From Nitrospirota bacterium (GTDB lineage Bacteria; Nitrospirota; Thermodesulfovibrionia; Thermodesulfovibrionales; UBA9159), in contig JAMCQB010000049.1 in the NCBI GenBank assembly GCA_023382175.1, positions 2,888-66,887 on the forward strand: a stretch of 64,000 nucleotides of DNA, written 5' to 3'. Of the stretch, positions 1,655 to 26,713 are shown piece by piece. Made by a program: the position numbers and the translations under genes. Numbering within the stretch: the stretch's first letter is position 1; every line of letters begins with the position of its first letter. The notes beneath the pieces were generated by a model, which was given only the letters and a program-made list of their open reading frames with translations, did no database searches and had not been told where the DNA came from.

Positions 1655-1695
1655 GTTAGCAACATGTCAGCAAATATGTTGGTAAATGGTTGGTA

Positions 1696-2385
1696 ATGCT
1701 ACTGTGTGACTTCCATATTCACACAAAATACTCTGACGGTTCCGTAGAGTTAAGAAGAACCATTGACCTCTTCGGACAGGCCGGCTTCGATGTAATCACC
1801 ATAACGGATCATGTGGTTAATGGGGATAGCTCCATCGGTAAAATTGCCCACAGATTCGGATTATCCGTGAAGGCTGATAACTTTGATGGATATATTTCCA
1901 ATATAAGACATGAGGCTCAAAGGGCATGGGATAAGTATGGAATGCTGGTAATTCCCGGAGTCGAAATAACCAAAAACTACGTCTCATCTGATAAATCTGC
2001 ACATATTCTTATCATTGACATAAAAGAATTCATCCCTGCCTGCTGGAGCTATGAAAAGATATTCCTTGAGGCAAAACAGCAGGATGCCCTGATAATAGCC
2101 TGTCATCCCCATCACATGTCCGACATGAGCAGAAGCACCTTGTATCTCTGGAATAACAGGGACAAGTACGCCAGGTACATCGACGCATGGGAAGTGGCGA
2201 ACAGGGATGATGTCTTTAACGTGATAAGCCTGAAGAAATATCCCTACATAGCAAACAGCGATTTTCACAGGACAAGACATCTTTACTCATGGAAAACCCT
2301 GCTGAACTGCGAAAAAAATACTGGATCGGTAAAACAATGTATAAGGCACAACAAAGGCGTCGCAATAACACTCTTTAGAAGTTAG
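1696..2385 (+). CDS. PHP-domain phosphoesterase
   Basis: The N-terminal CDFHIHTKYSDGS motif and later HPH and DFH histidine motifs are typical of the PHP family. ATG 1696 is preferred over TTG 1690. Confidence 0.7.
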   Translation: MLLCDFHIHTKYSDGSVELRRTIDLFGQAGFDVITITDHVVNGDSSIGKIAHRFGLSVKADNFDGYISNIRHEAQRAWDKYGMLVIPGVEITKNYVSSDKSAHILIIDIKEFIPACWSYEKIFLEAKQQDALIIACHPHHMSDMSRSTLYLWNNRDKYARYIDAWEVANRDDVFNVISLKKYPYIANSDFHRTRHLYSWKTLLNCEKNTGSVKQCIRHNKGVAITLFRS

Positions 2386-2395
2386 GAGGAAGGAA

Positions 2396-3610
2396 ATGGA
2401 AATATTCTGGATATTTACAGGCATAACAATTCTCGGACTTGTCGGATATGGACTTCAGATATTCGCGGTCCGTTCCTATATTTCTCATCCCTCCCTCAAC
2501 TCCGGGGAAGGGGATTCCCTTCCCCGATCTTTTCCGCCGATCTCTATCCTCAAACCTCTCAAAGGGCTTGATGACAATCTATTTGATAATCTTGAAAGCT
2601 TCTGCATGCTGGATTATCCTGAGTATGAAATTATATTCTCACTTCAGGATTTCAATGACCCTGCATATAAAGTAGCACGAAAAATCAAGGATAAATATCC
2701 CGATAGAGATATTGCTATCGTTGTCGAACATTGCGAGGACGGATTGAACCCAAAGGTGAACAACCTGATCCCTGCTTACAGAGTTGCCAAGCACCAGCAC
2801 ATACTCATCAGCGACAGCAATGTCATGGTCGATAAATATTACCTCAGGGAGATATCAATGCCTATGAATGAGCAAGGAGTCGGACTCGTGAGTAACCTCA
2901 TCAAGGGAGTGGGAGGAAGGTCCATCGGCTCCATACTTGAAAACCTCCACATGAACTCCTTTGTCATGGGAAGCGTCTGCTTCCTTGACAAATTCCTTAA
3001 AATGCCCTGCGTTATCGGGAAATCCATGCTGATGAAGAAGAGAGACATCGAAGCCATCGGCGGACTGAAGGCATACAAGGATGTGCTTGCCGAAGACTAT
3101 ATGATAGGCAAGATGATGCAAGAAAGCGGCAAAAAGGTGGTCCTGTCAAGTTATGTGATAAACAACGTGAACCATTATTGGGGTATCATAAAATTCATAA
3201 ACAGACACACCAGATGGGGAAAGCTCAGATGGAAAATCGGGGGTATAAAATATCTTTCTGAATTGATTGGGAACACCGTATTCATGTCTGTGCTTCCGAT
3301 AATGCTCTGGGAACCGTCAAAAATCACCGTCTCTTTTGCGCTGCTTGTCGCCCTGCTAAAAGCTTCCGGCGATTTTTATATCGGCAGACGCGCTGCTTCG
3401 GACCTGAATCCCTTTTTCTATTTTCTTTCGCCGCTAAAAGACATCGTCATAGGACTCATCTGGTTTGTCCCTCTTGTAAGCAACACCGTCTTGTGGAGAG
3501 GCCATCGCTTTATCATAGAGAAAGATTCAGTCTTATTCCCCTGTCCGGAAAACGGCTTCTGGTCATGGAGATACCGCATAGCGAATGCCATAAGAGAACA
3601 CCTTGCTTGA
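2396..3610 (+). CDS. membrane glycosyltransferase, ceramide glucosyltransferase-like (GT2/GT21)
   Basis: 404 aa with an N-terminal TM segment. ISILKPLKG, DSN and EDY (D/ED motifs) plus the RHTRWGKLRW (QxxRW-like) motif and C-terminal TM segments match this family. An RBS (GGAGGAAGG) lies upstream. Confidence 0.65.
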   Translation: MEIFWIFTGITILGLVGYGLQIFAVRSYISHPSLNSGEGDSLPRSFPPISILKPLKGLDDNLFDNLESFCMLDYPEYEIIFSLQDFNDPAYKVARKIKDKYPDRDIAIVVEHCEDGLNPKVNNLIPAYRVAKHQHILISDSNVMVDKYYLREISMPMNEQGVGLVSNLIKGVGGRSIGSILENLHMNSFVMGSVCFLDKFLKMPCVIGKSMLMKKRDIEAIGGLKAYKDVLAEDYMIGKMMQESGKKVVLSSYVINNVNHYWGIIKFINRHTRWGKLRWKIGGIKYLSELIGNTVFMSVLPIMLWEPSKITVSFALLVALLKASGDFYIGRRAASDLNPFFYFLSPLKDIVIGLIWFVPLVSNTVLWRGHRFIIEKDSVLFPCPENGFWSWRYRIANAIREHLA

Positions 3611-5509: not shown

Positions 5510-5554
5510 AATTAACGTTTCTTTCATATCCTTGTAACAATTTAAAGATAAGAT
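5510..5554 (+). promoter_or_regulatory. Pho-box-like promoter
   Basis: AATTAAC gttt CTTTCAT atcc TTGTAAC, then 10 bp, then TAAGAT (5549-5554). It lies 50 bp upstream of the ferredoxin/AOR operon. Confidence 0.5.
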
Positions 5555-5604
5555 AGCCTCGAATTCATAAAGTATTTCTCACCGAAAAAATAGGAGGAAC
5601 GAAT

Positions 5605-6357
5605 ATGAACTGCAAGAAGGAAGAACATTGTGAAGAAATTACTGAAAATAATGAAGAAGGCAGCAAAAGAGTTGCCCTGATGTCATCACGGCGAGAGTTT
5701 CTCAGGAACACATCTATAGGTGCTTTTATTTTGGCCTCCGGACTTGTGCCAGTGGAAGAAGCTGCCGCTGGCAAAAAAAGTGCTGATGTTCCCAAGGCAA
5801 TGAAATTCCTTGTCTTTGATCCAGCCCTCTGTACCGGGTGCGGAACCTGCCAAATGGCCTGTTCAACCCTGTGGAACAATGGTAAAGCCAGTCCGGCCCT
5901 ATCAAGGGTTACCGTATCGAGGAACCCATTCGGCACCTCGGATAACAATTATTCACCCAATCCCTGCCTTCAATGTGTAGACGCCCCATGTCTTAAGGCA
6001 TGCCCCCTTGGTGCAATAAAGGTAGAGAAAAAATCAGGAGCCAATGCAAGGGTCATTGATGAAAAGCTCTGCAAGGGAGTAAGGAAATGTATTGAAGCAT
6101 GTCCTTACGAAGAAAAGCGCATTACGTACGATGCAGAGAGGAATAAGGCATTGAAGTGTCACTTATGCAATGGAGACCCCCAGTGTGTGAAGTGGTGTCC
6201 CAATGGCGCCTTGAGGTTTAGCGGCCCCCCTGATTTTTCTCCCGTGGTTGAATACCTGCCTCAAGTGACTAAAAAACCGATGGTGGATAAAAGCTTTATG
6301 ATCGTCCTTGAAGAAGAGCGGAAAAAAGAACTGGGTTATCCAAGGGAGGAGAAATAA
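5605..6357 (+). CDS. Tat-signal 4Fe-4S polyferredoxin-like subunit
   Basis: Twin-arginine motif SRREFLRNTSIGAFILASG and multiple CxxCxxCxxxCP-type clusters. A strong RBS (AGGAGGA) precedes ATG 5605. Confidence 0.75.
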   Translation: MNCKKEEHCEEITENNEEGSKRVALMSSRREFLRNTSIGAFILASGLVPVEEAAAGKKSADVPKAMKFLVFDPALCTGCGTCQMACSTLWNNGKASPALSRVTVSRNPFGTSDNNYSPNPCLQCVDAPCLKACPLGAIKVEKKSGANARVIDEKLCKGVRKCIEACPYEEKRITYDAERNKALKCHLCNGDPQCVKWCPNGALRFSGPPDFSPVVEYLPQVTKKPMVDKSFMIVLEEERKKELGYPREEK

Positions 6358-6358
6358 C

Positions 6359-8347
6359 ATGCCAACGAAAAAGATATATGGATGGACAGGCAAGATATTG
6401 AAGATCGACCTTACAACAGGTTTGACTTCCATAATACCCACAATGGACTACGCAGAAAGGTTTGTCGGTGGAAGGGGAATTAATGCAAAACTCCACTTCG
6501 ATGAAGTCCCAGCGAGTGTCGGTGCCTTTGACCCTGAGAACAGGCTGACCGTAATGACCGGCCCGCTCACAGGAACGATTGCTCCTACGTCCGGCAGAGT
6601 GGAAGTCGGCGGAAAATCTCCCCAAACCTATCCTAACGAGAGCTATACGGTATCGTCCTTCGGCGGTTGGTGGGGACCAGAGCTGAAATATGCAGGCTTT
6701 GACGGCCTGATCATCTACGGGAAAGCGCCCAAACCTGTGTACCTCTATATACGCGATGGTAAGATCCAACTGCGCGATGCCGCACATCTATGGGGCAAAG
6801 ATATATTTACAACCCAGGAGATGCTCTGGAAAGAACTTGGCGACGGAAGAAAGCCTCAGGTACTCGCTATCGGTCCGGCGGGTGAAAACATGATCCGCTT
6901 TGCCATCATGATGCATGGCAGTTCATCGGCATCAGGTCAGGGAGGGTTTGGAGGGGTGTGCGGCTCGAAGAACCTCAAGGCGATTGTGGTAAGGGGGACT
7001 GGATATGTTGAAGCGGCAAAACCAAAGGAGTTGATGGACGTTTCCTATGCCATGAACAGGTGGATATACAGAGCAGACCAGAGGCCTGAACAATGGACCA
7101 ACATTGCCAGCTTCCATAGAATCGGGTGGTCATTTTTCCAGGGACAGAAGGTAAAAGGATGGAAGTGGCTCAAGAACTACACGAGAAAGGCCGAGGCATG
7201 CCATGCGTGCCCCCTCGGCTGCAGGGTCTTTTCGAACATAACGGATTCCCAAGGCAGACAGGGATCGGCAAAATGTAACCAGTTCTGGTACGAAAAATAC
7301 GATGTGCAGAGGCACAAGGATATAACAGAGGTTTTTTACAAAGCTGCCAAAATGGCGGATGCCATGGGCGTAAACGGCTTTGAATTGATCGGTATGATAC
7401 CGTGGCTCCAGAAATGTTTTGAAGAAAAGATATTTACTAGGGAAGATACCGGAATAGCCATAGAGGATGTAGGGACATTGGAGTTTGCTGAGAAGCTTCT
7501 CAAGATGATCACCTACAAAGAGGGATTCGGGAAAATTCTGTCGGAGGGTTCACCGAGGGCAGCTGATATCATAGGGAGAGGGAGTCAGAAACATTTACCC
7601 CATATGAATCGGGGTTTTGCCCATCACTGGGACCCCCAACTCTGGTCTCCGCAGGCTCTCTTCTGGGCCATGGAGACGCGGCATCCCGTCAGCAGTATCC
7701 ATGCCATGTACTGGGTATTCAGAATGTATGTGCAGGAACTCTGGCCTGCTGCGGGATTTGCATCTTCCGCTGATGTGGTCGCCTGGAGCAGGGAACTGTT
7801 CGGAACAGACAAGGCAATCGATTATAGTGATGAGAACTTCTATGATCCCGTTCATGCCACAGTCGCAAAGTGGATGCGTGAGTATGATGTGGCGCGGCGG
7901 AGCATGATAGTCTGTTCCTATGGTCCGACACCGCTTTTCTTCAGTTCCTATTCATCGGCGCCGCACTACACCATCCCCCTTCGCTCACCCGACCTTGAGA
8001 GTCGTCTCTTCAGCCTCGTCACGGGCAGCGATCTGGTGCCTGACGGCGCCGCCCTGATTGCGGCAGGACAGCGAATCATCAACGTGGAGCGTGTCATTGC
8101 AGCCCGAGAAGGGAGAACCAGGGAGCACGACACCCTTGCAGACTACCTTTTCACGAAGAAGAAGAAAGGCAAGGTCACCGGCCCCGGCGGAAAAGCAATT
8201 GCTGTAGAGCGAGCGATCGACAGGACAAAATTCGAATCTCTCAGGAATGAATACTACAGGATAAACGGGTGGGACGCCGCAAAAGGGCATCCCAGGCGGG
8301 AGACACTCGATGCACTGAATCTAAAAGACATTTCCGTGGCGGTATAA
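6359..8347 (+). CDS. aor: aldehyde:ferredoxin oxidoreductase (AOR) family tungsto/molybdopterin enzyme
   Basis: N-terminal GWTGKILKIDL...GGRG...TGPLTGT...GENMIRFA...GSKNLKAIVVRG and the CHACPLGC cluster motif are typical of AOR. The start was moved to ATG 6359, behind GGAGGA and after the upstream stop. Confidence 0.85.
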   Translation: MPTKKIYGWTGKILKIDLTTGLTSIIPTMDYAERFVGGRGINAKLHFDEVPASVGAFDPENRLTVMTGPLTGTIAPTSGRVEVGGKSPQTYPNESYTVSSFGGWWGPELKYAGFDGLIIYGKAPKPVYLYIRDGKIQLRDAAHLWGKDIFTTQEMLWKELGDGRKPQVLAIGPAGENMIRFAIMMHGSSSASGQGGFGGVCGSKNLKAIVVRGTGYVEAAKPKELMDVSYAMNRWIYRADQRPEQWTNIASFHRIGWSFFQGQKVKGWKWLKNYTRKAEACHACPLGCRVFSNITDSQGRQGSAKCNQFWYEKYDVQRHKDITEVFYKAAKMADAMGVNGFELIGMIPWLQKCFEEKIFTREDTGIAIEDVGTLEFAEKLLKMITYKEGFGKILSEGSPRAADIIGRGSQKHLPHMNRGFAHHWDPQLWSPQALFWAMETRHPVSSIHAMYWVFRMYVQELWPAAGFASSADVVAWSRELFGTDKAIDYSDENFYDPVHATVAKWMREYDVARRSMIVCSYGPTPLFFSSYSSAPHYTIPLRSPDLESRLFSLVTGSDLVPDGAALIAAGQRIINVERVIAAREGRTREHDTLADYLFTKKKKGKVTGPGGKAIAVERAIDRTKFESLRNEYYRINGWDAAKGHPRRETLDALNLKDISVAV

Positions 8348-8350
8348 AGG

Positions 8351-8722
8351 GTGAGTACGTGTCCATTTTGTTCCCTTCCGGCAGAAGACATCCTTGATGA
8401 GAACGAGTGTGCTGTTGCCGTAAGGGATAGTTATCCTGTGAGCGAGGGGCATACTCTTATCATTACTAAGCGTCATGTAGATGATTATTTCAAATTATCA
8501 GAAGAGGAAAAAAAACGGGCCCTCGATCTACTGGAAAGAAGGAAGAAGGCGATAGATAGTGAATTTAATCCGGACGGATATAATATCGGCATTAATATTG
8601 GTGCATTAGCCGGTCAGACAATTTTTCATGTGCATATTCATCTCATTCCAAGGATAAAGGGAGATATCGAAAACGGAGGAGGCGAGTTGAAGGGAGTCAT
8701 ACGCCGCAAGATGAGCTATTGA
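8351..8722 (+). CDS. HIT family (histidine triad) nucleotide hydrolase/transferase
   Basis: HVHIHLIPR histidine-triad motif. GTG start lies 4 nt after the AOR stop. Confidence 0.8.
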   Translation: MSTCPFCSLPAEDILDENECAVAVRDSYPVSEGHTLIITKRHVDDYFKLSEEEKKRALDLLERRKKAIDSEFNPDGYNIGINIGALAGQTIFHVHIHLIPRIKGDIENGGGELKGVIRRKMSY

Positions 8723-8807
8723 AAACTATGACTGTCGAGAAAACCGTCCTTACTCCGCACCTTGGCTCTGCGCACTGTGCTGCGGTTTTCTCTTTAGCTA
8801 AAGAATA

Positions 8808-9218
8808 TTACTGCCTCTTCATCATTCTCTCATATTCCCTGTGCATGAGCTCCGATGACGCCATGAAATCCGCTGTTGCGCGGTTACAGGCCACGGGAAT
8901 GTTGTATACGACAGCAATTCTCAGCAGGGCCTTCACATCTACGTCATGCGGGTGCGGTTCGAGGGGATCCCAGAAGAAAATGAGCACATCGATTTCCCCT
9001 TCTGTTATTTTTGCCCCAATCTGCTGGTCTCCTCCAAGAGGACCGCTCTTGAAACGGTGAATTGGAAGTGATAGCGCCTCGGACAACAACCCTCCCGTTG
9101 TCCCTGTTGCATACAGCTCATGTTCCTTAAGCACTTCGCGGTTGAACTTTGCCCATTCCACCAGATCCTTCTTCAAATTGTCGTGCGCTACCAATGCAAT
9201 TCTTTTTTTGTTTTTCAT
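8808..9218 (-). CDS. mgsA: methylglyoxal synthase
   Basis: [29 protein letters not shown] and [11 protein letters not shown] motifs span the full-length MgsA (136 aa). Confidence 0.9.
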
Positions 9219-9563: not shown

Positions 9564-9690
9564 TTTCTCACCTCCTTTCCCTAAGGAATATTTACCTTAA
9601 TCATACACCGATATGATTACATCATTATTAAACTTCAATGAAACTTCCCGGTCTCTGATGTCAGTGAGGCTGTCGGAATTCTTAATCGAA

Positions 9691-9735
9691 ATTTCACAAC
9701 TTTGTCATAACGGATTAACAATGGTTTGATATCTT
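9691..9735 (+). promoter_or_regulatory. Pho-box-like promoter of phoA
   Basis: ATTTCAC aact TTGTCAT aacg GATTAAC, then 10 bp, then TATCTT (9730-9735). It is followed by a leader of about 165 nt before phoA. Confidence 0.6.
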
Positions 9736-11265: not shown

Positions 11266-11481
11266 ATGTGTCCTTTTTGTACTATTAAACATGAACTTTG
11301 CAAAGCCGCCCTGTCATCGTTGATGATAGATAAAGAGCACTGTTCCAGCGAAGCTTATGACAGGTGCGCGATCTTTTTAGTCATCAAAGCAAGGGAGGGA
11401 GGTGATCGAAATGTGTCCAAGTTTCAAGGTGCGGATTTGCGAGGTGGCAGGTATCGAGCCGGAAAGAATACACTGCGCTGA
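11266..11481 (+). CDS. small four-cysteine protein, paralog A1
   Basis: CPFCTIKHELCKAALSSLMIDKEHCSSEAYDRCAIFL aligns with ORF 24561 (CPYF..DVCNASLSSL...FCNSEDYDNCPIFL). It sits directly behind a Pho-box promoter. The RBS is weak and the 3' end is uncertain. Confidence 0.5.
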   Translation: MCPFCTIKHELCKAALSSLMIDKEHCSSEAYDRCAIFLVIKAREGGDRNVSKFQGADLRGGRYRAGKNTLR

Positions 11482-12586: not shown

Positions 12587-12632
12587 ATTTAACCCACCTT
12601 TCATAACCCTGTAACATCTATCAATCTATAAT
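12587..12632 (+). promoter_or_regulatory. Pho-box-like promoter of psiE-like gene
   Basis: ATTTAAC ccac CTTTCAT aacc CTGTAAC, then 11 bp, then TATAAT (12627-12632). The ATG lies only 5 nt after the -10. Confidence 0.6.
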
Positions 12633-12637
12633 CACAA

Positions 12638-13078
12638 ATGCGCTTATTCAAGAAAGTCATAGATATAATCGTCAAGCTGATGATTCCCCTTGTAATCCTC
12701 GCTCTGATGATAGGGATTGCAAGGATATTCCTTGATTTGAGAGAGGTTTTCAAGAGTTCGACCATAGCCGGCGGTTTTGACATCATGGTGACGAATATCC
12801 TGTCGATGTTCGTCATCATAGAACTTCTTAAAGGGATCATAGAATATTTTGAGATACACAGGGTGAAGATTACCTTTATTACGGATGCAACATTGGTTTT
12901 TCTTCTCAGGGAAGTCATGATCGGCATATATCAACATAAAATGGGCTGGACTGAAATAATTTCAATTGCAGCGCTGCTCATCGTCATCGGCGGTATAAGG
13001 ACCATGGCTATTGTCTATTCGCCGGACAAGAGCAAGGAGGTGGCTGTCCATGAGCAAGGAACTGATCGAGAGAATTGA
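12638..13078 (+). CDS. psiE: phosphate-starvation-inducible PsiE-like membrane protein
   Basis: 146 aa with four TM segments. The central FVIIELLKGIIEYF...ATLVFLLREVMI pattern is similar to PsiE. Confidence 0.6.
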   Translation: MRLFKKVIDIIVKLMIPLVILALMIGIARIFLDLREVFKSSTIAGGFDIMVTNILSMFVIIELLKGIIEYFEIHRVKITFITDATLVFLLREVMIGIYQHKMGWTEIISIAALLIVIGGIRTMAIVYSPDKSKEVAVHEQGTDREN

Positions 13079-13230: not shown

Positions 13231-13275
13231 ACTTAACCTCTTTTTCATAACCATGTAACATCTTCTCCGTAGACT
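13231..13275 (+). promoter_or_regulatory. Pho-box-like promoter
   Basis: ACTTAAC ctct TTTTCAT aacc ATGTAAC, then 10 bp, then TAGACT (13270-13275). Confidence 0.5.
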
Positions 13276-13602: not shown

Positions 13603-14829
13603 ATGGATCAGCTTTGTGGCGAATCGCCTCAGGTTGGAAAACTGATTACATCCCGTGAACACCTGCAACCGGATGTTGTTGTCAGAGATGTGGCAGATCG
13701 CTTTTTCAAGTCTTCTGAACTTGATGCGCTGGCCCTTGTTGAGGGGAGAAATCCTCTTGGGCTTGTTACTAGGCCGAAGTTCTTCTTCACGGTGTTCAGG
13801 AGATACGGATTCGAACTCTATGGAAGGAAGCCGATCATTACTATCGCCGATACGGCGCCGCTTCTGATGCATGAGGACGAAAGACTTGATGTCGCGATAG
13901 ACAAGGCGCTGGAGCGGCCCCCTCAGGACGTCTACGACGATATTGTTGTGGTGAATGAGTCCGGCTCATACGCAGGGCTGCTCTCCGTAAAACAGATGGT
14001 AATTCAACAAAGCACTGTGCTCGCAAATAATATCATCCAAAAAGAAATGGTGCAGGCAAAGGCAAAAGAGATAGAGAGGATGAGTGAGTTAAGGTCCCGG
14101 TTTATAGCCCATGTCACCCATGAACTCAGATCGCCGGTGAATGCGATCATAGGACTGGCAGAACTCATACAGGTATCATCCCGGAAGGGTTATATGGAGC
14201 AGATGAAGGACCGCCTCGCGCTTCTCATGTCCAGTGCAACCAACCTCCGGGCTATTGTGACAAACATTCTTGACCTTTCAAAGATTGAGGCCGGAAAGAT
14301 GGAAGTGATAACGGAACAATTCAACGTGGTGACCCTCCTCAACGAGGCGGCGGAAACAACCCGCGTCCTGGTCGGAAATAAGCCGGTTAATGTGGAAGTG
14401 ATTGCGCATGAAGACCCGTTGTTTATGGTTTCCGATCCCGTTAAGATACGGCAGATACTGACCAACCTCCTAAGTAATGCGGCAAAATTTACAGAAAAAG
14501 GCAAGATTCTCATATCGCTCGGCCTTGAAGGAAGCAGGGTGAGAATTGTTGTGAGCGATACGGGGATAGGGATAAGAGAAAATGAGATGGACAAATTGTT
14601 CGTGGCCTTCAGTCAACTGGAAGATACGATGACCAAGAGACACGAGGGAACGGGACTTGGATTGACTATCACCAAGAACTTACTAACCATCTTAGGGGGT
14701 AAGATCACCGTGGCGAGCAATTTTGGGGAAGGAACGTCGTTTACGGTTTTTTTCCCTTTAAATCATATGACAAAGGAGGATAGTTCAGATGGAAGGCAAG
14801 AGAGACAAAAAGATGGTACTGATCATTGA
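13603..14829 (+). CDS. cytoplasmic sensor histidine kinase (CBS-like N-terminal module, HisKA, HATPase_c)
   Basis: H-box FIAHVTHELRSP, N-box LLSNAAKFT, and G-boxes DTGIGI and GTGLGL. No TM segments are present. Confidence 0.85.
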   Translation: MDQLCGESPQVGKLITSREHLQPDVVVRDVADRFFKSSELDALALVEGRNPLGLVTRPKFFFTVFRRYGFELYGRKPIITIADTAPLLMHEDERLDVAIDKALERPPQDVYDDIVVVNESGSYAGLLSVKQMVIQQSTVLANNIIQKEMVQAKAKEIERMSELRSRFIAHVTHELRSPVNAIIGLAELIQVSSRKGYMEQMKDRLALLMSSATNLRAIVTNILDLSKIEAGKMEVITEQFNVVTLLNEAAETTRVLVGNKPVNVEVIAHEDPLFMVSDPVKIRQILTNLLSNAAKFTEKGKILISLGLEGSRVRIVVSDTGIGIRENEMDKLFVAFSQLEDTMTKRHEGTGLGLTITKNLLTILGGKITVASNFGEGTSFTVFFPLNHMTKEDSSDGRQERQKDGTDH

Positions 14830-15178
14830 TGATGACGTGAAACATCTCCTCACTGCGAAGGGTCTTTTGGAGAATATGGGATATGAGGTACGCATACATC
14901 ATTTTGCATTCGGAGCTACTAATGCGGTGAGAGAGACAAAACCGGATCTTGTTTTGCTTGATATGAATATGCCCGGCCTCTCAGGTGAAAGGCTTTCGAA
15001 ACTGCTCCTTTCGAATGGCAAAACGAAGGACATTCCTATTGTATTCTATTCCTCCAATGATGAAGACAACTTGAGGAAGGCCGTGGTCGAATACGGCGTA
15101 AAGGGTTACATCGCCAAAGGAGATATCTTTGAGTTGCGAAAAAAAGTCGCGAGCTATTTGGAGTCGCCGATTGGTTGA
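14789..15178 (+). CDS. single-domain response regulator (receiver only)
   Basis: VLIIDDD, DLVLLDMNMPG and a C-terminal K (KGYIAK) are receiver motifs. An RBS (AAGGAGG) precedes it. It overlaps the kinase 3' end. Confidence 0.85.
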   Translation: MEGKRDKKMVLIIDDDVKHLLTAKGLLENMGYEVRIHHFAFGATNAVRETKPDLVLLDMNMPGLSGERLSKLLLSNGKTKDIPIVFYSSNDEDNLRKAVVEYGVKGYIAKGDIFELRKKVASYLESPIG

Positions 15179-15551: not shown

Positions 15552-15596
15552 AATTAACCTGGCTGTAATAATCCTGTAACAAAATAGTTGTATCCT
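15552..15596 (+). promoter_or_regulatory. Pho-box-like promoter
   Basis: AATTAAC ctgg CTGTAAT aatc CTGTAAC, then 10 bp, then TATCCT (15591-15596). The geometry and -10 hexamer are the same as at pstS. Confidence 0.6.
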
Positions 15597-15616
15597 TGAT
15601 ACTAAGGAGGATAAGA

Positions 15617-15832
15617 ATGCATCTAAAAAGTGGAGCGATCTGTCAATTTCTGAAAGGGGGTTCTGACGGAGCTCAGTGCAGCGTGGTCGGCAGGTTCATC
15701 AGGCTCATGGAAGACGCCGACATCCGGCTCTGTATGGGCAGACACCATGAGGCATGCTCATACTATGTGCTCTCATTACGGGGACTGGCTCTTAGGGCTG
15801 CGGATCCTGATACTGCATTAGGCACGCGGTAG
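15617..15832 (+). CDS. small four-cysteine protein, paralog D
   Basis: ATG 15617 follows AAGGAGG. The Cys pattern is C-x11-C-x17-C-x7-C (ICQF...AQCS...RLCMGRHHEACSYY). Confidence 0.5.
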   Translation: MHLKSGAICQFLKGGSDGAQCSVVGRFIRLMEDADIRLCMGRHHEACSYYVLSLRGLALRAADPDTALGTR

Positions 15833-15870: not shown

Positions 15871-16197
15871 ATGCTTAACGAATTGACGACACAATCTGCA
15901 ACAGGAATTGAGGAGATGAGATGTCCCTCTTGCGATTCCGATGCTATCTATAAGTATGGAAGGGCATGGACAGGAAAACAGAGGTTTCTCTGCATGATGT
16001 GCGGGATGCAATTTACCGGCAATGCCGGGAAGGCAACGGTGAAAGGCAAACCGGCTTGTCCGGAATGCGGGAAGCCCATGAACCTCTATAAGATAGAGGG
16101 TATTGTTGTGCGGTTCAGATGTTCGGGCTATCCAAAATGTAGAACATTCAAAAAATATAGGATGAAGGAGGAGCCAGATGAGCCATTACATCCATAA
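15871..16197 (+). CDS. double zinc-ribbon protein (InsA-like CxxC ribbon plus topoisomerase-type C4 finger), putative DNA binding
   Basis: CPSCDS...GKQRFLCMMCGMQF resembles transposase/InsA-type ribbons. CPECGKPM...FRCSGYPKC resembles the Topo I C4 finger. ATG 15916 is an alternative start. Confidence 0.5.
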   Translation: MLNELTTQSATGIEEMRCPSCDSDAIYKYGRAWTGKQRFLCMMCGMQFTGNAGKATVKGKPACPECGKPMNLYKIEGIVVRFRCSGYPKCRTFKKYRMKEEPDEPLHP

Positions 16198-16549
16198 CGT
16201 CCCGGGAAGATTGAGAGTTAAAAGTCCGGCAGTTAAGAAGAACACGGATGCCGCGGTTGAAATCCGAAAGATTTTGAGCGCCATGAACGGTATTGCAACG
16301 GTCGACATTAACCTCATCACCGGCAGTGTTCTCATTAACTACAATCCGGCGACCGTACAATACAAAGACATTGTAGGCACGCTCCAAAGGAAGGGCTACT
16401 TTGATACGTCAAAGGCGATAACAAATGATCAATACATCCAGAGAGCCGCTTCGAAAGCAGGCAATATCGTCGGAAAGGCTATCTTCGGTACATTTGTGGA
16501 AAAGGCATTCGAAGGGTCGGCTTTGTCATTAATAACATTCTTGATCTAA
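16178..16549 (+). CDS. HMA2-type (cysteine-less heavy-metal-associated-like) domain protein with hydrophobic C-terminal tail
   Basis: H..PGRLRVK...N.ITGSVLINY is the motif shared by three other proteins in this window. It overlaps the upstream ORF. Confidence 0.6.
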   Translation: MSHYIHNVPGRLRVKSPAVKKNTDAAVEIRKILSAMNGIATVDINLITGSVLINYNPATVQYKDIVGTLQRKGYFDTSKAITNDQYIQRAASKAGNIVGKAIFGTFVEKAFEGSALSLITFLI

Positions 16550-19329: not shown

Positions 19330-19407
19330 CTTAAGGTTAAGGTTGAGGCTAAGGTTAAGAATTACAAATTTTTAATCTCTCTTAACCTAAACCTTAACCT
19401 CAACCTG
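19330..19407. repeat. hexamer-based palindrome (TTRAGG)n / (CCTYAA)n between the ATPase stop and the metK-like start
   Basis: ttaagg ttaagg ttgagg ctaagg ttaaga, then a loop, then tcttaacc taaacc ttaacc tcaacc. The right arm includes the ATPase stop codon. Confidence 0.6.
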
Positions 19408-22400
19408 TTCTTTTTGTGCCTTCATTCACTAACAATGGCATCACCGCACTGCCTCCAATCACAATACCATCGAGGATACCTATGGGAGCCAATCCCAAAA
19501 GATTTCGGAGCCCTGGTAGCGCCATGGCAAGAAGCTGTACGGCAAAGGAACCTCCGAGGGCGATATTGAGATATTTATTGGGCAGTAGTTTTTCCTTATC
19601 AAATATAGAATGCTTCTCGGAGCGGCAACTTATGGCGTGGAGAAGCTGACCTGCGGTAAGGCTCATAAAAGCCATGGCGCTTGCCTTCTGTCCCATACCG
19701 TATCTCATCACGCCATATCCATAGGCCCCCAGGGTCCCCGCGGAAATCACTGCGGATTCAAATGTGATTCTTTTGAAATCCGACGTCTTGACGATCAGTT
19801 CTTCAGGATCCCGTGGAGGCTGGCTCAGCACATCAGGTTCAGGGGGTTCGAGGGCAAGGGCAAGACCCGGCGCTATATCGGACATAAGGTTGATCCACAG
19901 CAGCTGTATCGCACTGAGAGGTTGACCGAGCCCCCCTGCAATAGCAGTGAACATAACCATGATCTCGCTCAGATTTGTCGACAGCAGGAAATGGACGGAT
20001 TTCCTGATGTTGTTATAGATGGTCCTTCCCTGGCTTATGGCGATGATCATCGTTGCGAGTTCATCGTCTTCGATGACAACGTCTGCGACTTCCCGGGCAA
20101 CATCGGTGCCCACATGTCCCATTGCGATGCCTATATCCGCTGCTTTGAGGGCAGGGCCGTCATTAATACCATCTCCCGTCATGGCCACAATCTTTCCCGC
20201 ACCCTGGAGCGCCTGAACTATCTGGAGCTTATGGGCAGGACTCACGCGCGAAAAAACATGCACCCTCTCGCAGAGCGCCTTCATCACTTCAGGGTCGATA
20301 CTGGCAAGGTGAGCGGAATCAAGGATCTCGAGTTGTTCGCCATTGCTGAGGTTCAATTCCTTTCCTATGGCATAGGCGGTCGGGCTCTGGTCGCCGGTTA
20401 TCATGACCGTCTCAATCCCTGCCCTGTGAAATTCCCCTATCAACCCCTTCACGCCTCCTCTGACCGGATCAGCCATTCCTACAAGACCCAGCCACACAAG
20501 ATTATCGCTGAAATCGACATCATTATTAAGAAACGCGCCCGGTTCACCATCACTGAGAGAGTACGCCACCCCAAGGACACGGAGAGCCTCCCCGGCCATA
20601 CGCTCATTTTCCGTCTCTATGGCGAGCCGGTCCTCATCGGTCAAGGGAATCTTCCTGCCATCCTTCATATGCCACCTGCACATCGACAGGACCTCGTTCG
20701 GGCTCCCCTTTACGGCAACAAGCGCGGAATGGTTGCCTGCGCGGTGAAGTGTATACATGTAGTTGCGGTTTTCAGAACGATGTTGAATGTTCACCAGGAG
20801 AAATTTTTCCCTGAGTCTTACCACATCGACCCCCGAACTCAATGCTATGTGGATCAGCGCATTCTCCGTAGGAGAACCGTTGACCGCATATTCACCATGC
20901 TGTCCGATCACTTCACTTTCATTGCAGAGAGCCGCTATGTGAATGAGTCTCAGGAGTTCATCGAAGAGATATACACTCGCCGGTTCACCGGACGCAAAAA
21001 ACTGCCCGTCGGATACAGTGAAGCGCCTCATCCCACTAAATGCCGTGACAACAGACATCCTGTTCAGGGTGATCGTTCCTGTTTTGTCGAGGCATATGGT
21101 GTGGATAGAGCCGAGGGTTTCGACCGCTTCGAGTCGCCGTATGAGGACGTTGTGCCTCCGCATATTTCTGATGCCCAGGGCTAAGGTTGTGGTCGCCACT
21201 GTCGGAAGTCCTTCGGGGACGGCGGCGATGGCAAGGGATATGGAGGTTTTGAGCATCTGTAAAAAACCGTATCCACGAAGAAGTCCCGTAACAAAGACCA
21301 GGCCGCAGACAGCGCCGCAGATCAATACCAGTTGGCTGCCCATCATGTCCAGTTGGCGCTCCATAGGGGTTTCAGGAGGTCTTGCTTCACCGACGAGGAT
21401 TTGTATCCTTCCGATCTCGGTAAACCTCCCTGTCGCAACGGCAACAGCAATCCCCTGTCCTCCGACAACAAGTGTCCCCATGTATACCATGTTCGTCCTG
21501 TCAGCGAGGGGGATGTTGTCCCTCTCACCCTCTCCCGCCAGGGGAGAGGGTTTATAAATTTGTTTCCCTCCCCCTTGATGGGGGAGGGTGAGGGAGGGGG
21601 TGGCTGTTGTTTTAACCACAGGCATACTCTCGCCGGTGAGTGCTGACTCATCGATGCTCAGGTGATTGGCTTCAATGAGCCTTGCGTCTGCCGCAACATA
21701 GCTGCCGGGCCTGAGCAGAAGGAGGTCTCCGGGCACTACGTTTTCTGCGCCTATCTCTTTCAGACGACCATCCCGCAGCACTATAGCAGAGGGTCTCACA
21801 AGATTCTTCAGCGAATGGATCGTTTTTTCGGTCTGGCTCTCGGTTGTGTAACCGATGGCGGCATTGATGAGGACTACGCCCATGATCACCACCGCATCTG
21901 CAAGACCGCCGGTGAGGAGCGAAATGCCCGCAGCAGCTCCCAGGAGGGCGACAGGAAGGGATTTGAACTGGTTGATGAACATACTCAGCCCTGAACGCGG
22001 AACAGATTCAGGAAGGACATTCGGACCGTATTTTTTGAGATGTGCCCCGGCGAGGTCGCCGGATAAGCCCGAATCTTTCGACGTGCCGAGAGATTGGAGA
22101 ACCTCGGTCGCCTCAGCAAGATGCCACGGCTCGACTCTCTGGTCCTCGGACCGGATAATGCTTTTCCTTAATTTTCTCCTGCTTCTGAGCTCTCCGCGTT
22201 CCGGGGTCAGGACTTCGCCTGGCCTTGCTTTTTCCGGAAGCGGGTTGTGGACCTTTGCATGTCGAACTTCTTTCCCGGAGCCTGCTGCCACCCCTGGAAC
22301 GGGTAATGAAAAACAAGATGACTGCCTTCCGGCATTTTTTTTGTGAGCTTCGACAACGTCCGCAATGAGCAGGGCTATTGAATGGTGGGGGTTGTCTGAA

Positions 22401-22570
22401 TTAAAGAAAACAAGCACACTCCCGGTCAAAGAGTTTACCGAGAATTTCAGTATCTCTTTATGAGACGACAGACCCCCCTCTATCTCTCTCTTGAGCCTCT
22501 CAGAGCGGTATAGCCCATCTACCTTAAATCGCGCCCTGCCTTTTACAGCAGCATGTATGGGCCGAACCAC
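19400..22570 (-). CDS. P2-type cation-translocating P-type ATPase with N-terminal HMA2-type domain
   Basis: TGES, PEGLP, DKTGTIT, MITGDQ and GDGINDGPALK motifs. The TM5/TM6 motifs STNLSEI and INLMSD resemble SERCA-like Ca-site residues. The N-terminal KGRARFKV...N.LTGSVLVFF is an HMA2-type domain. Confidence 0.9.
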   Translation of the reverse strand: MVRPIHAAVKGRARFKVDGLYRSERLKREIEGGLSSHKEILKFSVNSLTGSVLVFFNSDNPHHSIALLIADVVEAHKKNAGRQSSCFSLPVPGVAAGSGKEVRHAKVHNPLPEKARPGEVLTPERGELRSRRKLRKSIIRSEDQRVEPWHLAEATEVLQSLGTSKDSGLSGDLAGAHLKKYGPNVLPESVPRSGLSMFINQFKSLPVALLGAAAGISLLTGGLADAVVIMGVVLINAAIGYTTESQTEKTIHSLKNLVRPSAIVLRDGRLKEIGAENVVPGDLLLLRPGSYVAADARLIEANHLSIDESALTGESMPVVKTTATPSLTLPHQGGGKQIYKPSPLAGEGERDNIPLADRTNMVYMGTLVVGGQGIAVAVATGRFTEIGRIQILVGEARPPETPMERQLDMMGSQLVLICGAVCGLVFVTGLLRGYGFLQMLKTSISLAIAAVPEGLPTVATTTLALGIRNMRRHNVLIRRLEAVETLGSIHTICLDKTGTITLNRMSVVTAFSGMRRFTVSDGQFFASGEPASVYLFDELLRLIHIAALCNESEVIGQHGEYAVNGSPTENALIHIALSSGVDVVRLREKFLLVNIQHRSENRNYMYTLHRAGNHSALVAVKGSPNEVLSMCRWHMKDGRKIPLTDEDRLAIETENERMAGEALRVLGVAYSLSDGEPGAFLNNDVDFSDNLVWLGLVGMADPVRGGVKGLIGEFHRAGIETVMITGDQSPTAYAIGKELNLSNGEQLEILDSAHLASIDPEVMKALCERVHVFSRVSPAHKLQIVQALQGAGKIVAMTGDGINDGPALKAADIGIAMGHVGTDVAREVADVVIEDDELATMIIAISQGRTIYNNIRKSVHFLLSTNLSEIMVMFTAIAGGLGQPLSAIQLLWINLMSDIAPGLALALEPPEPDVLSQPPRDPEELIVKTSDFKRITFESAVISAGTLGAYGYGVMRYGMGQKASAMAFMSLTAGQLLHAISCRSEKHSIFDKEKLLPNKYLNIALGGSFAVQLLAMALPGLRNLLGLAPIGILDGIVIGGSAVMPLLVNEGTKRTG
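21519..21600. repeat. double-hairpin GC-rich palindromic element inserted in frame in the ATPase gene
   Basis: CCCTCTCCC-gccag-GGGAGAGGG (21528-21550) and CCCTCCCCC-ttgat-GGGGGAGGG (21566-21588). It is translated as ...LTLPHQGGGKQIYKPSPLAGEGERD... Confidence 0.65.
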
Positions 22571-23346: not shown

Positions 23347-23829
23347 TTATGCTGCGACCCCGGCGCCTTGCCCTGACTTGAGGAATATGTTAAATGCGTA
23401 CCAGAAGGCGGCATACCATGGGAGCGCAGTAAGATTTCCTACGCTCATTTGGTATATTCCGGCGCCGAGGAGCAGGAGAAAAGCCAGCCCTCCGATGTCT
23501 ATCTCGCCCCCGGTAAGCGCCACAAGCTGAGTATTCATCCCTTTAAAGGTTTCCGATACCCGCTGCTGCAACCTTCTCGGAGAGGCGTTCAGTCCTTGAA
23601 GGCTGAAAAGATTACCGGCCATGGCGTATCCCGCAATTCTTTCACTATCCAGATCGTGCATCACGAGCAAACTGCCGGTTAAGGCATTGACTTCAACGGT
23701 CTTGATGCCTTCAAAACCGGAAAATCGTTCCTTCAAGCCTCCAAAAAATGCACGATCACCCTTTTTTGAAGGTATCCTGATCCTCAACCTTCCTCTGGTC
23801 CGATGGCTTATATAAGCGCGCGGGAGCAT
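23347..23829 (-). CDS. HMA2-type domain protein with C-terminal transmembrane segments
   Basis: The N-terminal H.TRGRLRIRIP...N.LTGSLLVMH motif and the C-terminal GGLAFLLLLGAGIY...ALPWYAAFWYAFNIFL. Its start overlaps the upstream stop (TAATG). Confidence 0.6.
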   Translation of the reverse strand: MLPRAYISHRTRGRLRIRIPSKKGDRAFFGGLKERFSGFEGIKTVEVNALTGSLLVMHDLDSERIAGYAMAGNLFSLQGLNASPRRLQQRVSETFKGMNTQLVALTGGEIDIGGLAFLLLLGAGIYQMSVGNLTALPWYAAFWYAFNIFLKSGQGAGVAA

Positions 23830-24119
23830 TAAGCGTTTGGTTCGCCTTCCGGCGCAACCGGGGCAGATGCGGCTTTTTCCGCCTCCGAGATCTCAGCTTT
23901 TACCTCGGCTACCAGGTCCTCAACCACCTCACCTACTTCAGCAAAAGTCTCCTTGCCTTTTTCAAAGAGGATAAGTCCTCCCTTTATCGCTGCCTTTGCC
24001 ACCGGTTTTGCCACACCTGCAATAACGGGGAGCACGGCAGGAGCAAGGACAGCCGCCCCTATGCCAATAGCAAGCCCTGTCACAACATTTCCCTTCAGGA
24101 CATCATCAAAAAGTCCCAT
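23829..24119 (-). CDS. DUF5132-like small membrane protein
   Basis: MGLFDDVLKGNVVTGLAIGIGAAVLAPAVLPVIAGVAKPVAKAAIKGGLILFEKG followed by an acidic tail. This matches my recollection of DUF5132 proteins, which are often adjacent to HMA2/P-type ATPase genes. Confidence 0.55.
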   Translation of the reverse strand: MGLFDDVLKGNVVTGLAIGIGAAVLAPAVLPVIAGVAKPVAKAAIKGGLILFEKGKETFAEVGEVVEDLVAEVKAEISEAEKAASAPVAPEGEPNA

Positions 24120-24267: not shown

Positions 24268-24300
24268 ATGCCCAGGATCAGACGAAAGAGGATGACTGCT

Positions 24301-24564
24301 ATGATGCAGTACAAGATTTTACATCATGTCCCAGGCCGTATCAGGATTGAGGTGCCCTCCATTAAGGGACGTTCCCTGAAGGCTCTAAAGCGATTATCAG
24401 ATATTCCCGTTCCGTGCGGTATAGAGGACATTCGCCCTAATCCCTTGACAGGAAGCCTCTTGATAAAGTATGACCCAGGCCGGATAAATATCGTTTCCTA
24501 TCTGAGGGACATGGCATCCAGGGACGTGATAAACAATGTACTCGACAAAGGAGGTTTGTTATGA
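24301..24564 (+). CDS. stand-alone HMA2-type domain protein
   Basis: HHVPGRIRIEVP...NPLTGSLLIKYDP. The start was moved to ATG 24301 because ATG 24268 abuts the predicted -10. The RBS is AAGAGGA. Confidence 0.6.
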   Translation: MMQYKILHHVPGRIRIEVPSIKGRSLKALKRLSDIPVPCGIEDIRPNPLTGSLLIKYDPGRINIVSYLRDMASRDVINNVLDKGGLL

Positions 24565-24770
24565 ACAGCACCCATAACATTGCATCTATGATACACCTCA
24601 CCAATGAATTGGAATTGCAGTGCCCCTACTTTGATGCATCCGACGTCTGCAATGCCTCGCTCTCCTCATTATTGCCATCGCCGACTATGAGGGTGAATTT
24701 CTGTAACAGCGAAGACTATGACAATTGCCCCATATTCCTGGCTAAGGTCTTAAGAAGGAGGCGGAAATGA
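24561..24770 (+). CDS. small four-cysteine protein, paralog E
   Basis: ATGA start/stop overlap with the upstream gene and an AAGGAGG RBS. The Cys pattern is C-x8-C-x17-C-x7-CPIF. Confidence 0.55.
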   Translation: MNSTHNIASMIHLTNELELQCPYFDASDVCNASLSSLLPSPTMRVNFCNSEDYDNCPIFLAKVLRRRRK

Positions 24771-24958
24771 CATGTCTCGACTATGTGTCCGAAGATTTGA
24801 GATGTCTCAGGGGTATCCCCGTTACTCCAAGGTTCAGCAGCTTCTTCTGTAAAGGAAAACATGAGAAATGTCCTTTGATCATATGGGAGAAATCTCAGAC
24901 AAAGAACCCGGAGATGTTACGGCCGAAATCATTTATCAATATATGGAGGGAACCATGA
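24767..24958 (+). CDS. small four-cysteine protein, paralog F
   Basis: ATGA overlap and an AAGGAGG RBS. The Cys pattern is C-x9-C-x14-C-x6-CPLI. Confidence 0.5.
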   Translation: MTCLDYVSEDLRCLRGIPVTPRFSSFFCKGKHEKCPLIIWEKSQTKNPEMLRPKSFINIWREP

Positions 24959-25134
24959 AATGTCCGCATCTGGCAAAATGGGTCGTGTCTGTCTGTAAGG
25001 CTGTGAGTAATACTTATGTCCCCAGTAACTTTGAGCTTCAAGAGTACTGTAAGACAAAAAGCCATAAGAAATGCCCTTTCTTTTTAAAGAATACAGCCGT
25101 GAAAAGAGAAGCGGATGGCCTGATCTCAGCATAG
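24955..25134 (+). CDS. small four-cysteine protein, paralog G
   Basis: ATGA overlap with F and a GGAGGG RBS. MKCPHLAKWVVSVCKAV...YCKTKSHKKCPFFL gives the pattern C-x10-C-x17-C-x7-CPFF. Confidence 0.55.
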   Translation: MKCPHLAKWVVSVCKAVSNTYVPSNFELQEYCKTKSHKKCPFFLKNTAVKREADGLISA

Positions 25135-25410: not shown

Positions 25411-25466
25411 ATGTAACAGAAAATTAATCTTCTTGTAACATAATTGTAACAATCAAAATGTATCCT
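25411..25466 (+). promoter_or_regulatory. Pho-box promoter of pstS (four phased boxes)
   Basis: ATGTAAC agaa AATTAAT cttc TTGTAAC ataa TTGTAAC, then 10 bp, then TATCCT (25461-25466). Confidence 0.7.
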
Positions 25467-26498: not shown

Positions 26499-26520
26499 GT
26501 ACCACAGGCTAAAGGCGAAT

Positions 26521-26570
26521 AGGCTGAAGGCAAAAGGTTAAAACTGCCTTATTCCTTCAGCCTTTTTTTT
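26521..26570 (+). terminator. intrinsic terminator after pstS
   Basis: AGGCTGAAGG ... CCTTCAGCCT stem followed by T8. Confidence 0.7.
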
Positions 26571-26650
26571 GACCTTAAATTTAATCAAGAGAATTCAGGG
26601 AGGGGAGATATGAGATGCCTCGCGGCTCCGCTGCGGGGTAATTCATTAAA

Positions 26651-26679
26651 TTGCAATAGACAATTCCGATATGTATTAT
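26651..26679 (+). promoter_or_regulatory. possible sigma70-type internal promoter for pstCAB-phoU
   Basis: TTGCAA-N17-TATTAT. Confidence 0.35.
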
Positions 26680-26713
26680 ATATTGACCACTGACTGTAAG
26701 GAGCATTATCGCT

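Follow-up and report, generated by a model that had tools for sequence, protein, structure and literature searches.

Apparent Pho-box control of a predicted Tat-exported ferredoxin-AOR operon in an uncultured Nitrospirota bacterium

We have analyzed a 64,000-nucleotide stretch of DNA from a Nitrospirota bacterium (contig JAMCQB010000049.1, hereafter the window) that contains an operon encoding a ferredoxin, a catalytic subunit of the aldehyde:ferredoxin oxidoreductase (AOR) family of tungsten- or molybdenum-dependent enzymes, and a histidine triad (HIT) hydrolase. The operon probably belongs to the Pho regulon, and its first two products are predicted to form a soluble, two-subunit periplasmic enzyme that is exported by the twin-arginine translocation (Tat) pathway and belongs to the branch of the AOR family with a cysteine ligand to the active site metal. 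This assignment draws on in silico analysis of the promoter motif, the regulon that it marks, its conservation across genomes, the Tat motif of the ferredoxin, and the family placement of the enzyme. The pairing of a Tat-bearing ferredoxin with an AOR-family protein has already been described and is not new; the novel element is the predicted, conserved Pho control of a subclade without a membrane anchor.

Operon Organization and Promoter

Every element and gene call of a preliminary description of this locus was found where it had been placed (Table 1). The three genes lie head to tail on the plus strand. The AOR gene starts at the second base after the ferredoxin stop codon, leaving a single spacer nucleotide, and the HIT gene starts after three spacer nucleotides, which agrees with the distances of 2 and 4 nt given previously. 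The hairpin behind the operon is called as its terminator on position only; the number of terminator-like sites in the scanned region was not above chance.

Table 1. Features of the operon, with the reference Pho boxes of the window
Feature	Position	Strand	Remarks
Pho box of the ferredoxin promoter	5512-5539	+	Hexamers TTAACG (5512-5517), TTCATA (5523-5528), and GTAACA (5534-5539); 11-bp period, at the -35 position
-10-like hexamer	5549-5554	+	TAAGAT, 9 nt past the last repeat; like layout at other window and ortholog sites
Shine-Dalgarno sequence of ferredoxin gene	5593-5597	+	GGAGG, 7 nt 5' of the ATG; read from sequence
Ferredoxin gene, WorS/YdhY-like	5605-6357	+	ATG start, 250 aa; Pfam Fer4_11/Fer4_7 and Fer4 dicluster domains
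Predicted Tat signal peptide	5605-5769	+	aa 1-55; SRREFLR at aa 28-34, hydrophobic stretch IGAFILASGLVPV, AAA|G cleavage motif
Shine-Dalgarno sequence of AOR gene	6344-6349	+	GGGAGG, within the 3' end of the ferredoxin gene; read from sequence
AOR/WOR-family catalytic subunit gene	6359-8347	+	ATG start, 662 aa; Pfam AFOR_N and AFOR_C
HIT-family hydrolase gene	8351-8722	+	GTG start, 123 aa; CPFC and HVHIHLI motifs; Pfam HIT, 77 bits
Terminator-like hairpin and T-run	8768-8795	+	Lies between the operon and convergent mgsA (8808-9218, minus strand)
psiE Pho box	12589-12616	+	Top-scoring copy; also kept upstream of psiE in locus L008
pstSCAB-phoU reference Pho box	25413-25451	+	GTAACA/TTAATC/GTAACA/GTAACA; basis for calling the motif a Pho box

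The 28-bp pattern TTAAYN6TNNWTN6GTAAYA, with one mismatch allowed, matched the window nine times, against 0.06 matches expected as the mean over dinucleotide-preserving shuffles. All nine copies are on the plus strand, 5' of plus-strand genes, and fall between 1.6 and 25.4 kb; a TAnnnT hexamer stands 7-11 nt past each site. A position weight matrix (PWM) built from the eight other window sites gave the ferredoxin site a score of 31.7 bits, compared with a maximum of 19.1 bits in 20 mononucleotide shuffles of the 64 kb. The genes behind the boxes include pstSCAB-phoU (25488-29923), a psiE homolog (12638), genes for a PHP phosphoesterase and a family-21 glycosyltransferase (1690-3610), and several small open reading frames (ORFs). 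The alkaline phosphatase gene (9909) is preceded by four such hexamers in a different order (9682-9720). In the housekeeping half of the window (30-64 kb), which includes a low-affinity Pit transporter, the PWM scan detected no Pho site.

The E. coli Pho box is made of 7-bp direct repeats with an 11-bp period and lies about 10 bp upstream of the -10 element, the layout of PhoB-activated promoters. Compared with this established element, the window sites match a PhoB-activated promoter. The three-box Pho-like promoter noted earlier is thus present, recurrent, common to pstS, psiE, and other phosphate genes, and kept in the genomes of orthologs (below). Pho control of the ferredoxin-AOR-HIT operon is well supported in silico.

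Conservation of the Pho Box and of the Phosphate Context

Close orthologs of the AOR (62-94% identity) are rare. A single one was found among 185,579 species-representative genomes, in which all other matches were at most 38% identical; two more close loci came from JGI metagenome contigs and a handful from other assemblies. Locus L095 is 100% identical to the window over 18.3 kb, and protein P0001 is also 100% identical. The window-trained PWM placed its best match of the whole locus just 5' of the ferredoxin gene in five metagenomic orthologs with upstream sequence, namely L008 (30.0 bits), L001 (27.2 bits), L093 (24.0 bits), L006 (23.9 bits), and L005 (21.8 bits). Other pairs of motif and gene are kept too: psiE in L008 and the PHP gene in L090.

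The neighbors of the operon in this close clade are also phosphate-related. psiE follows the operon in L008 and the family-21 glycosyltransferase gene precedes it in L006, whereas in L001 it is flanked by purple acid phosphatase and metallophosphatase genes and by transposases. In the window genome the carbon-phosphorus (C-P) lyase genes phnGHIJKLM lie directly upstream of the phosphate island, a few kb from the operon; of the phn and ptx genes that the preliminary description had proposed to look for around such pairs, the phn part was borne out. The cytochrome-b-linked relatives (L002, L004, L011, and L012; 37-54% identity) had no upstream PWM site, and about 80 loci of more distant relatives (1.19 Mb) contained no pst, phoU, psiE, phoA, or phn genes.

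The Ferredoxin and Its Predicted Tat Signal

The predicted signal peptide of the ferredoxin has a 13-residue hydrophobic stretch (h-region). All orthologous partner ferredoxins keep [ST]RRxF[LV][KR], the h-region, and an AxA-like site, with a Lys/Glu-rich n-region before the RR motif that varies freely in length and sequence; their cognate AORs are 37-94% identical to the window enzyme. Support for the Tat signal is good at the level of the motif and weak at the level of the model (below). An internal start at Met-26, which had been thought to remove the Tat motif, would retain it, as Met-26 lies 5' of Arg-29 and Arg-30. The strong Shine-Dalgarno sequence in front of the first ATG favors Met-1 as the start.

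The AOR is predicted to lack a signal peptide because its N terminus aligns to that of solved AORs, with residue 7 corresponding to their residue 2. The twin-arginine signal is thus on one subunit only, as in other Tat hitch-hikers, and both halves of the earlier description (SRREFLR on the ferredoxin, no signal on the AOR) agree with sequence, alignment, and ortholog conservation. Given the conserved RR signal on the ferredoxin and none on its partner, we infer that the cofactor-loaded AOR hitch-hikes on the ferredoxin, the natural reading that had been put forward before. The accompanying remark that AOR enzymes are normally cytoplasmic is outdated, as pairs of a Tat-bearing small subunit (WorS) and a large subunit (WorL) are a described class (PMC13328260). 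We found Tat-bearing partners in the window clade, in L002, L004, L011, L012, L015, L038, and L082, and in E. coli. The window encodes LptE, LptF, and LptG, and the organism is therefore taken to be diderm.

The mature ferredoxin contains four iron-sulfur cluster motifs with 15 rather than 16 cysteines, the third motif being a clade-conserved CX5CX3CP. Most orthologous ferredoxins also have 15 cysteines, and a few have extra cysteines near the N terminus. This composition suggests either three [4Fe-4S] clusters and one [3Fe-4S] cluster or one cluster with a non-cysteine ligand. The best NCBIfam match is the YdhX-type model PRK09898, at 81 bits and under its cutoff, and sequence identity is 31% to E. 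coli YdhY and 27% to YdhX.

Placement of the Enzyme and Its Active Site

Pfam scores of 235 (AFOR_N) and 151 bits (AFOR_C) identify the catalytic subunit as a member of the AOR/tungsten oxidoreductase (WOR) family. The [4Fe-4S] ligands Cys-281, Cys-284, Cys-288, and Cys-519 are conserved family-wide and invariant in 17 clade members. Cys-306 is likewise invariant in the clade and aligns with BamB Cys-322. In an alignment of 94 sequences, the Cys-306 column is common only to BamB, YdhV, and a related subset, the classical AOR-like sequences being gapped here; in pairwise BLAST, Cys-306 and the YdhV cysteine are one residue out of register. Cysteine is a direct ligand to the metal in BamB (Cys-322) and YdhV (Cys-336), and both enzymes lack the second-shell residues for aldehyde oxidation (PMC12096430). 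Cys-306 is accordingly a predicted metal ligand. For the second-shell positions themselves (Thr-243, Glu-313, Tyr-427, and His-448 in PfAOR numbering), the MAFFT and hidden Markov model (HMM) alignments of the window enzyme disagree at residues 306-313, and Tyr-427 and His-448 could not be mapped.

The aldehyde-oxidizing AOR, FOR, and GAPOR enzymes have no protein ligand to the metal, whereas Cys-306 occupies the ligand column in the window enzyme. The presence of the BamB/YdhV metal-ligand cysteine places the enzyme outside the aldehyde-oxidizing clades, and it is probably not a classical aldehyde oxidoreductase. Its only NCBIfam match is the E. coli YdhV model NF007354, at 279.9 bits and far under the equivalog cutoff of 868. 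Full-length identity is 27% to YdhV and ~24% to BamB, and these two proteins alone align to the clade profile in one full-length piece.

The phylogenetic placement that the preliminary description had called for was carried out as a bootstrapped, distance-based neighbor-joining tree. The window enzyme and those of L090, L008, L005, and L001 form a close clade of five with 100% bootstrap support; support remains at 100% on adding L007 and then the cytochrome-b-linked L002/P0011, and is 97% on adding L004/P0015. A superclade of cysteine-containing sequences with BamB and YdhV has moderate support (73%). With the shared cysteine column and this moderately supported node, we assign the enzyme to the cysteine-ligated BamB/YdhV branch. 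Solved structures were tried as a guide to placement and set aside. The clade profile scores YdhV (340 bits), the 9MQX AOR (337 bits), PfAOR (332 bits), and BamB (330 bits) nearly equally, and the AlphaFold (AF2) model (mean confidence, pLDDT, of 84) has undiscriminating template modeling (TM) scores of 0.76-0.77 in Foldseek to the AOR and BamB structures 1AOR, 9G7J, and 4Z3W.

Relation to Known Enzymes

The closest described systems are the Class V WORs of a 2026 classification, in which WorL and a WorS with a Tat signal or transmembrane segment are joined by further subunits, as a rule membrane proteins. More than 10% of the family falls in this class, YdhV among them, and no activity or role is known for it; a respiratory role has been proposed. 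CsWOR41L, the sole purified example, prefers tungsten, has an FdhD gene nearby, and showed no activity with any of 46 aldehydes (all PMC13328260). The window system resembles Class V clade 41 (E. coli YdhV with YdhY, YdhX, and YdhU; Cetobacterium somerae CsWOR41) in having a large subunit paired with a Tat-bearing four-cluster ferredoxin in periplasmic orientation, in the cysteine metal ligand of YdhV, in the frequent presence of an FdhD gene nearby, and in the cytochrome b subunit of its near relatives L002, L004, and L012. The window ferredoxin itself has the features of a Tat-WorS (SRREFLR, h-region, and AAA|G), with a third cluster motif that is one cysteine short. The window system differs in that identity to YdhV is only 27%, in that there is no third subunit or anchor in the operon and no gene for cytochrome b or another membrane subunit of the enzyme in the 64-kb window, and in its predicted Pho-box control. 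The E. coli ydh operon, in contrast, is under FNR/NarL/NarP control. As the window lacks the cytochrome b that L002, L004, and L012 possess, the Pho-linked subclade seems to derive from a quinone-linked periplasmic enzyme by loss of its anchor.

BamB shares the aligned tungsten-ligand cysteine and a ferredoxin-like partner, BamC, and is the sole solved structure that aligned in one full-length piece. It is, however, a cytoplasmic protein of the large BamBCDEFGHI complex, whereas the window enzyme has a Tat-bearing partner and no bam genes nearby.

A respiratory relationship of this kind leads to a possible, if doubtful, reading in which the enzyme is Pho-regulated and exported, as we propose, but serves redox or energy metabolism, passing electrons from some organic or inorganic donor in the periplasm into the periplasmic carrier pool while metabolism is re-wired for phosphate starvation. 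Besides the role proposed for Class V, the cytochrome-b-wired relatives L002, L004, and L012 stand in non-phosphorus contexts, next to organic-acid or cupredoxin genes, which points to a respiratory ancestry. The Pho-linked subclade has nevertheless lost the quinone-linked anchor, which would be odd for energy conservation, and its neighbors are consistently phosphate-scavenging genes.

The Third Gene and Accessory Genes

The HIT protein has an intact histidine triad (HxHxHxx) and is weakly assigned to the Hint-like branch. The three genes of the operon described previously are all present, although HIT is not a conserved member: it stands third in the operon only in the two closest genomes, those of the window and of the syntenic L090. 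Because the third gene varies between orthologs, HIT is best regarded as a lineage-specific, co-regulated, presumably cytoplasmic passenger rather than a partner of the enzyme. An FdhD gene adjoins the AOR gene in L005, L006, L007, L008, and L093. A search of the window for partners yielded no cytochrome b, FdhD, tat, mod/tup, or moa/moe genes. The small ORFs after the AOR gene in L007 and L002 were considered as a common partner and rejected, being mutually unrelated and without a family match. In L006 (1465-3077), the AOR breaks off after ~365 aa and continues into an FdhD gene that is itself truncated, as a result of either a deletion or faulty assembly.

The gene after the AOR in L001 (9855-10304) encodes a homolog of thioredoxin-type arsenate reductase in the low-molecular-weight phosphatase family (ArsC-like; 121 bits, under the family cutoff of 174). 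It bears on a second alternative, that the enzyme is an arsenic oxyanion oxidoreductase, an analogue of arsenite oxidase, induced because arsenate enters through Pst under phosphate starvation. There is a precedent in the arsenite oxidase AioBA of Halomonas sp. HAL1, a Tat-exported periplasmic molybdenum enzyme that is directly controlled by PhoB (PMC4563254). Like the pair described here, AioBA is a pterin enzyme that hitch-hikes through Tat on a small iron-sulfur subunit and is expressed from a Pho-box promoter, which PhoB binds at low phosphate; it differs in belonging to the DMSO reductase family, in its bis-MGD cofactor and Rieske small subunit, and in having a known substrate. We consider an arsenic substrate quite improbable. 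The ArsC-like gene occurs in one of nine loci, the window contains no ars, aio, or arx genes, and a periplasmic arsenite oxidase together with a cytoplasmic arsenate reductase would form a futile cycle.

The gene facing the operon gives rise to a further suggestion, namely that the enzyme detoxifies methylglyoxal or aldehydes in general. Methylglyoxal synthase becomes active at low phosphate, and mgsA is the convergent neighbor both in the window and in L090. The mgsA gene nonetheless has no Pho box and is missing from the loci of the other orthologs, and the predicted periplasmic location and cysteine-ligated active site do not suit such a role, which appears very unlikely indeed.

Points Against a Pho-regulated, Exported Enzyme

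Several observations weigh against the assignment made here. The organisms concerned are all uncultured and are represented by metagenome-assembled genomes or metagenome contigs, so that the evidence throughout is that of sequence. Direct repeats with an 11-bp period are typical of any OmpR/PhoB-family regulator, and for this reason it is the genes of the regulon that justify the Pho label. The window has no gene for a PhoB with a DNA-binding domain; the response regulator encoded at 14789-15178 is receiver-only. The box of L005 lies ~270 bp upstream of its ferredoxin gene, and in the two nearest relatives the repeats are degenerate, if recognizable (L090, 14.5 bits; L091, 9.9 bits). The NCBIfam Tat-signal HMM, TIGR01409, gives no match to the window ferredoxin, and its scores for orthologs, 16.8 and 15.6 bits, lie close to the cutoff of 16.7. 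Profile and fold scores put the enzyme equally far from AOR, BamB, and YdhV. The third gene may be HIT, FdhD, or ArsC-like depending on the ortholog, FdhD is missing from the window, and there are no ptx or htx genes near the operon.

The missing PhoB gene and the silent Tat model would fit a reading in which an OmpR-family regulator binds the motif in response to another signal, or in which the Tat motif is non-functional and the enzyme cytoplasmic. We judge this improbable. The same motif precedes pstSCAB-phoU, psiE, and the alkaline phosphatase gene, and the RR motif, h-region, and AxA site are conserved among ferredoxins whose n-regions vary freely.

Proposed Model and Candidate Substrates

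For the Pho-regulated, exported enzyme, we infer the following course of events. A PhoB-type regulator would bind the three 11-bp-phased hexamers, which replace a -35 element, and thereby switch on transcription of the ferredoxin, AOR, and HIT genes at phosphate shortage. The four-cluster ferredoxin, with its cleavable Tat signal, would carry the bound, cofactor-loaded, signal-less AOR across the membrane, giving a soluble two-subunit periplasmic oxidoreductase with a bis-pyranopterin cofactor and tungsten or molybdenum as the presumed metal. By gene organization this would be a Class V WOR in which the cytochrome b anchor, retained by the nearest relatives beyond the subclade, has been lost. 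The electron path would run from the pterin site to the [4Fe-4S] cluster of the large subunit, on to the ferredoxin clusters, and from there to a soluble periplasmic acceptor. The HIT protein would stay in the cytoplasm, merely co-regulated.

As to the substrate, we tentatively put forward phosphite or hypophosphite, which would be oxidized to phosphate in the periplasm for capture by PstS, while regarding this particular identification as unlikely. The reaction would require an O2-independent tungsten- or molybdenum-pterin oxidase to abstract the P-H hydrogen at a formate-dehydrogenase-like Cys/sulfido site and to pass the electrons to periplasmic carriers. Reduced phosphorus is favored because all other members of the regulon serve phosphate capture and this enzyme alone is a redox enzyme, because phosphate produced in the periplasm would feed PstS without a dedicated transporter, and because a role in assimilation suits an enzyme that has given up its quinone anchor better than one in energy conservation. 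A formate-dehydrogenase-like metal site is suggested by the cysteine ligand and by the adjacent FdhD in most orthologs. FdhD is the maturase, a sulfurtransferase, that sulfurates the cofactor of formate dehydrogenase. In chemical terms, the H-P bond of phosphite and hypophosphite is an analogue of the H-C bond of formate.

Redox enzymes of a Pho regulon that turn reduced phosphorus into phosphate, the role considered speculatively here, have a counterpart in Pseudomonas stutzeri, in which White and Metcalf (2004; cited in PMC4046663) are said to have described the Pho-regulated oxidation of reduced phosphorus by the ptxD and htxA products. PtxD, however, is cytoplasmic and NAD-dependent and HtxA is O2-dependent, and both act after uptake; neither is homologous to the window enzyme, which would be periplasmic, O2-independent, and pterin-based. 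Hypophosphite has been described as an inorganic analogue of formate that has genetic interactions with pterin enzymes (PMC13374091). A literature search turned up no pterin-dependent phosphite oxidase, and the D. phosphitoxidans genome paper does not mention a link to an AOR or molybdoenzyme. Transposon sequencing (Tn-seq) of D. alaskensis G20 under phosphate limitation was considered as support and rejected: the possibly orthologous aor-2/ferredoxin pair Dde_2943/2944 and the molybdenum cofactor genes showed a fitness defect only in phosphate-replete stationary phase (PMC5193443).

The preliminary description had speculated instead that an organophosphorus aldehyde, for example phosphonoacetaldehyde, might be oxidized anaerobically. 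Membership of the AOR family and the C-P lyase genes upstream are in keeping with this idea, which otherwise found no support. The site of phosphonoacetaldehyde formation is the cytoplasm, and the predicted site of the enzyme is the periplasm. C-P lyase genes are the only phosphonate genes at hand; the ORFs annotated in the window and in the 3.6 kb before it include no phnW, phnX, phnY, or phnA. The enzyme falls, moreover, in the cysteine-ligated BamB/YdhV branch without the aldehyde-oxidizing second-shell residues (PMC12096430), and CsWOR41L was inactive on the 46 aldehydes assayed (PMC13328260). We regard an organophosphorus aldehyde as a highly improbable substrate.

Other Features of the Phosphate Island

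Including the variant in front of the alkaline phosphatase gene, there are ten Pho-box promoters in the window, beginning at 1612, 5512, 9682, 11202, 12589, 13233, 15554, 24225, 25171, and 25413 and all on the plus strand. They span a phosphate island of ~25 kb (1612-25451). Together with phnGHIJKLM just upstream, as seen in L095, the island amounts to a compact and nearly complete map of the Pho regulon of an uncultured Nitrospirae lineage. Outside it, the genes for the Pit-type low-affinity phosphate transporter and a PhoU_div (DUF47) protein (52843-54448, minus strand) are without a Pho box, which fits constitutive expression or different regulation.

The box at 13233 precedes a 60-aa ORF, a histidine kinase gene (13603-14829), and the overlapping gene of the receiver-only response regulator (14789-15178). 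In the psiE promoter (12589-12640), only 5 nt separate the end of the TATAAT hexamer from the annotated ATG, which implies either a leaderless mRNA or a true start codon further downstream.

The PHP phosphoesterase and family-21 (HpnI-like) glycosyltransferase genes form a Pho-box operon of their own, which suggests synthesis of phosphorus-free glycolipids. In its counterpart in L090 (5624-7504), an extra gene for a 626-aa protein is inserted after them. Read from its translation alone, this protein is possibly an acyltransferase/GNAT fusion, perhaps OlsF-like.

Several small ORFs of 63-88 aa, located at 11266-11481, 15596-15832, and 24561-25134, stand directly behind Pho boxes. Their products share a four-cysteine pattern ending in C-P-[ILF]-[FI]-[LI], as in FCNSEDYDNCPIFL and YCKTKSHKKCPFFL, and have no match in Pfam or NCBIfam. 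They may represent a family of small phosphate-starvation-induced proteins that is as yet undescribed. Three HMA_2-domain proteins with a VPGR[LI]R[VI] N terminus, two of them encoded behind Pho boxes, occur near a DUF5132 protein and a Ca-type P-type ATPase; the genes of this group are located at 16178-16549 and 24268-24564 on the plus strand and at 19400-22570, 23347-23829, and 23829-24119 on the minus strand.

Implications

An exported tungsten or molybdenum enzyme under a phosphate-starvation switch would be the first physiological clue for a class of enzymes without an assigned role. That the subclade appears to be wired to phosphate starvation in several independent genomes narrows the search for its substrate considerably, the candidates becoming periplasmic compounds that matter at low phosphate, such as phosphite, hypophosphite, arsenic oxyanions, and some organophosphorus species. 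Should the substrate prove to be a reduced phosphorus compound, the phosphorus redox cycle would gain an anaerobic branch that depends on a pterin enzyme, anaerobes would gain a new route of reduced phosphorus assimilation, and a Class V-type WOR would have its first assigned function.

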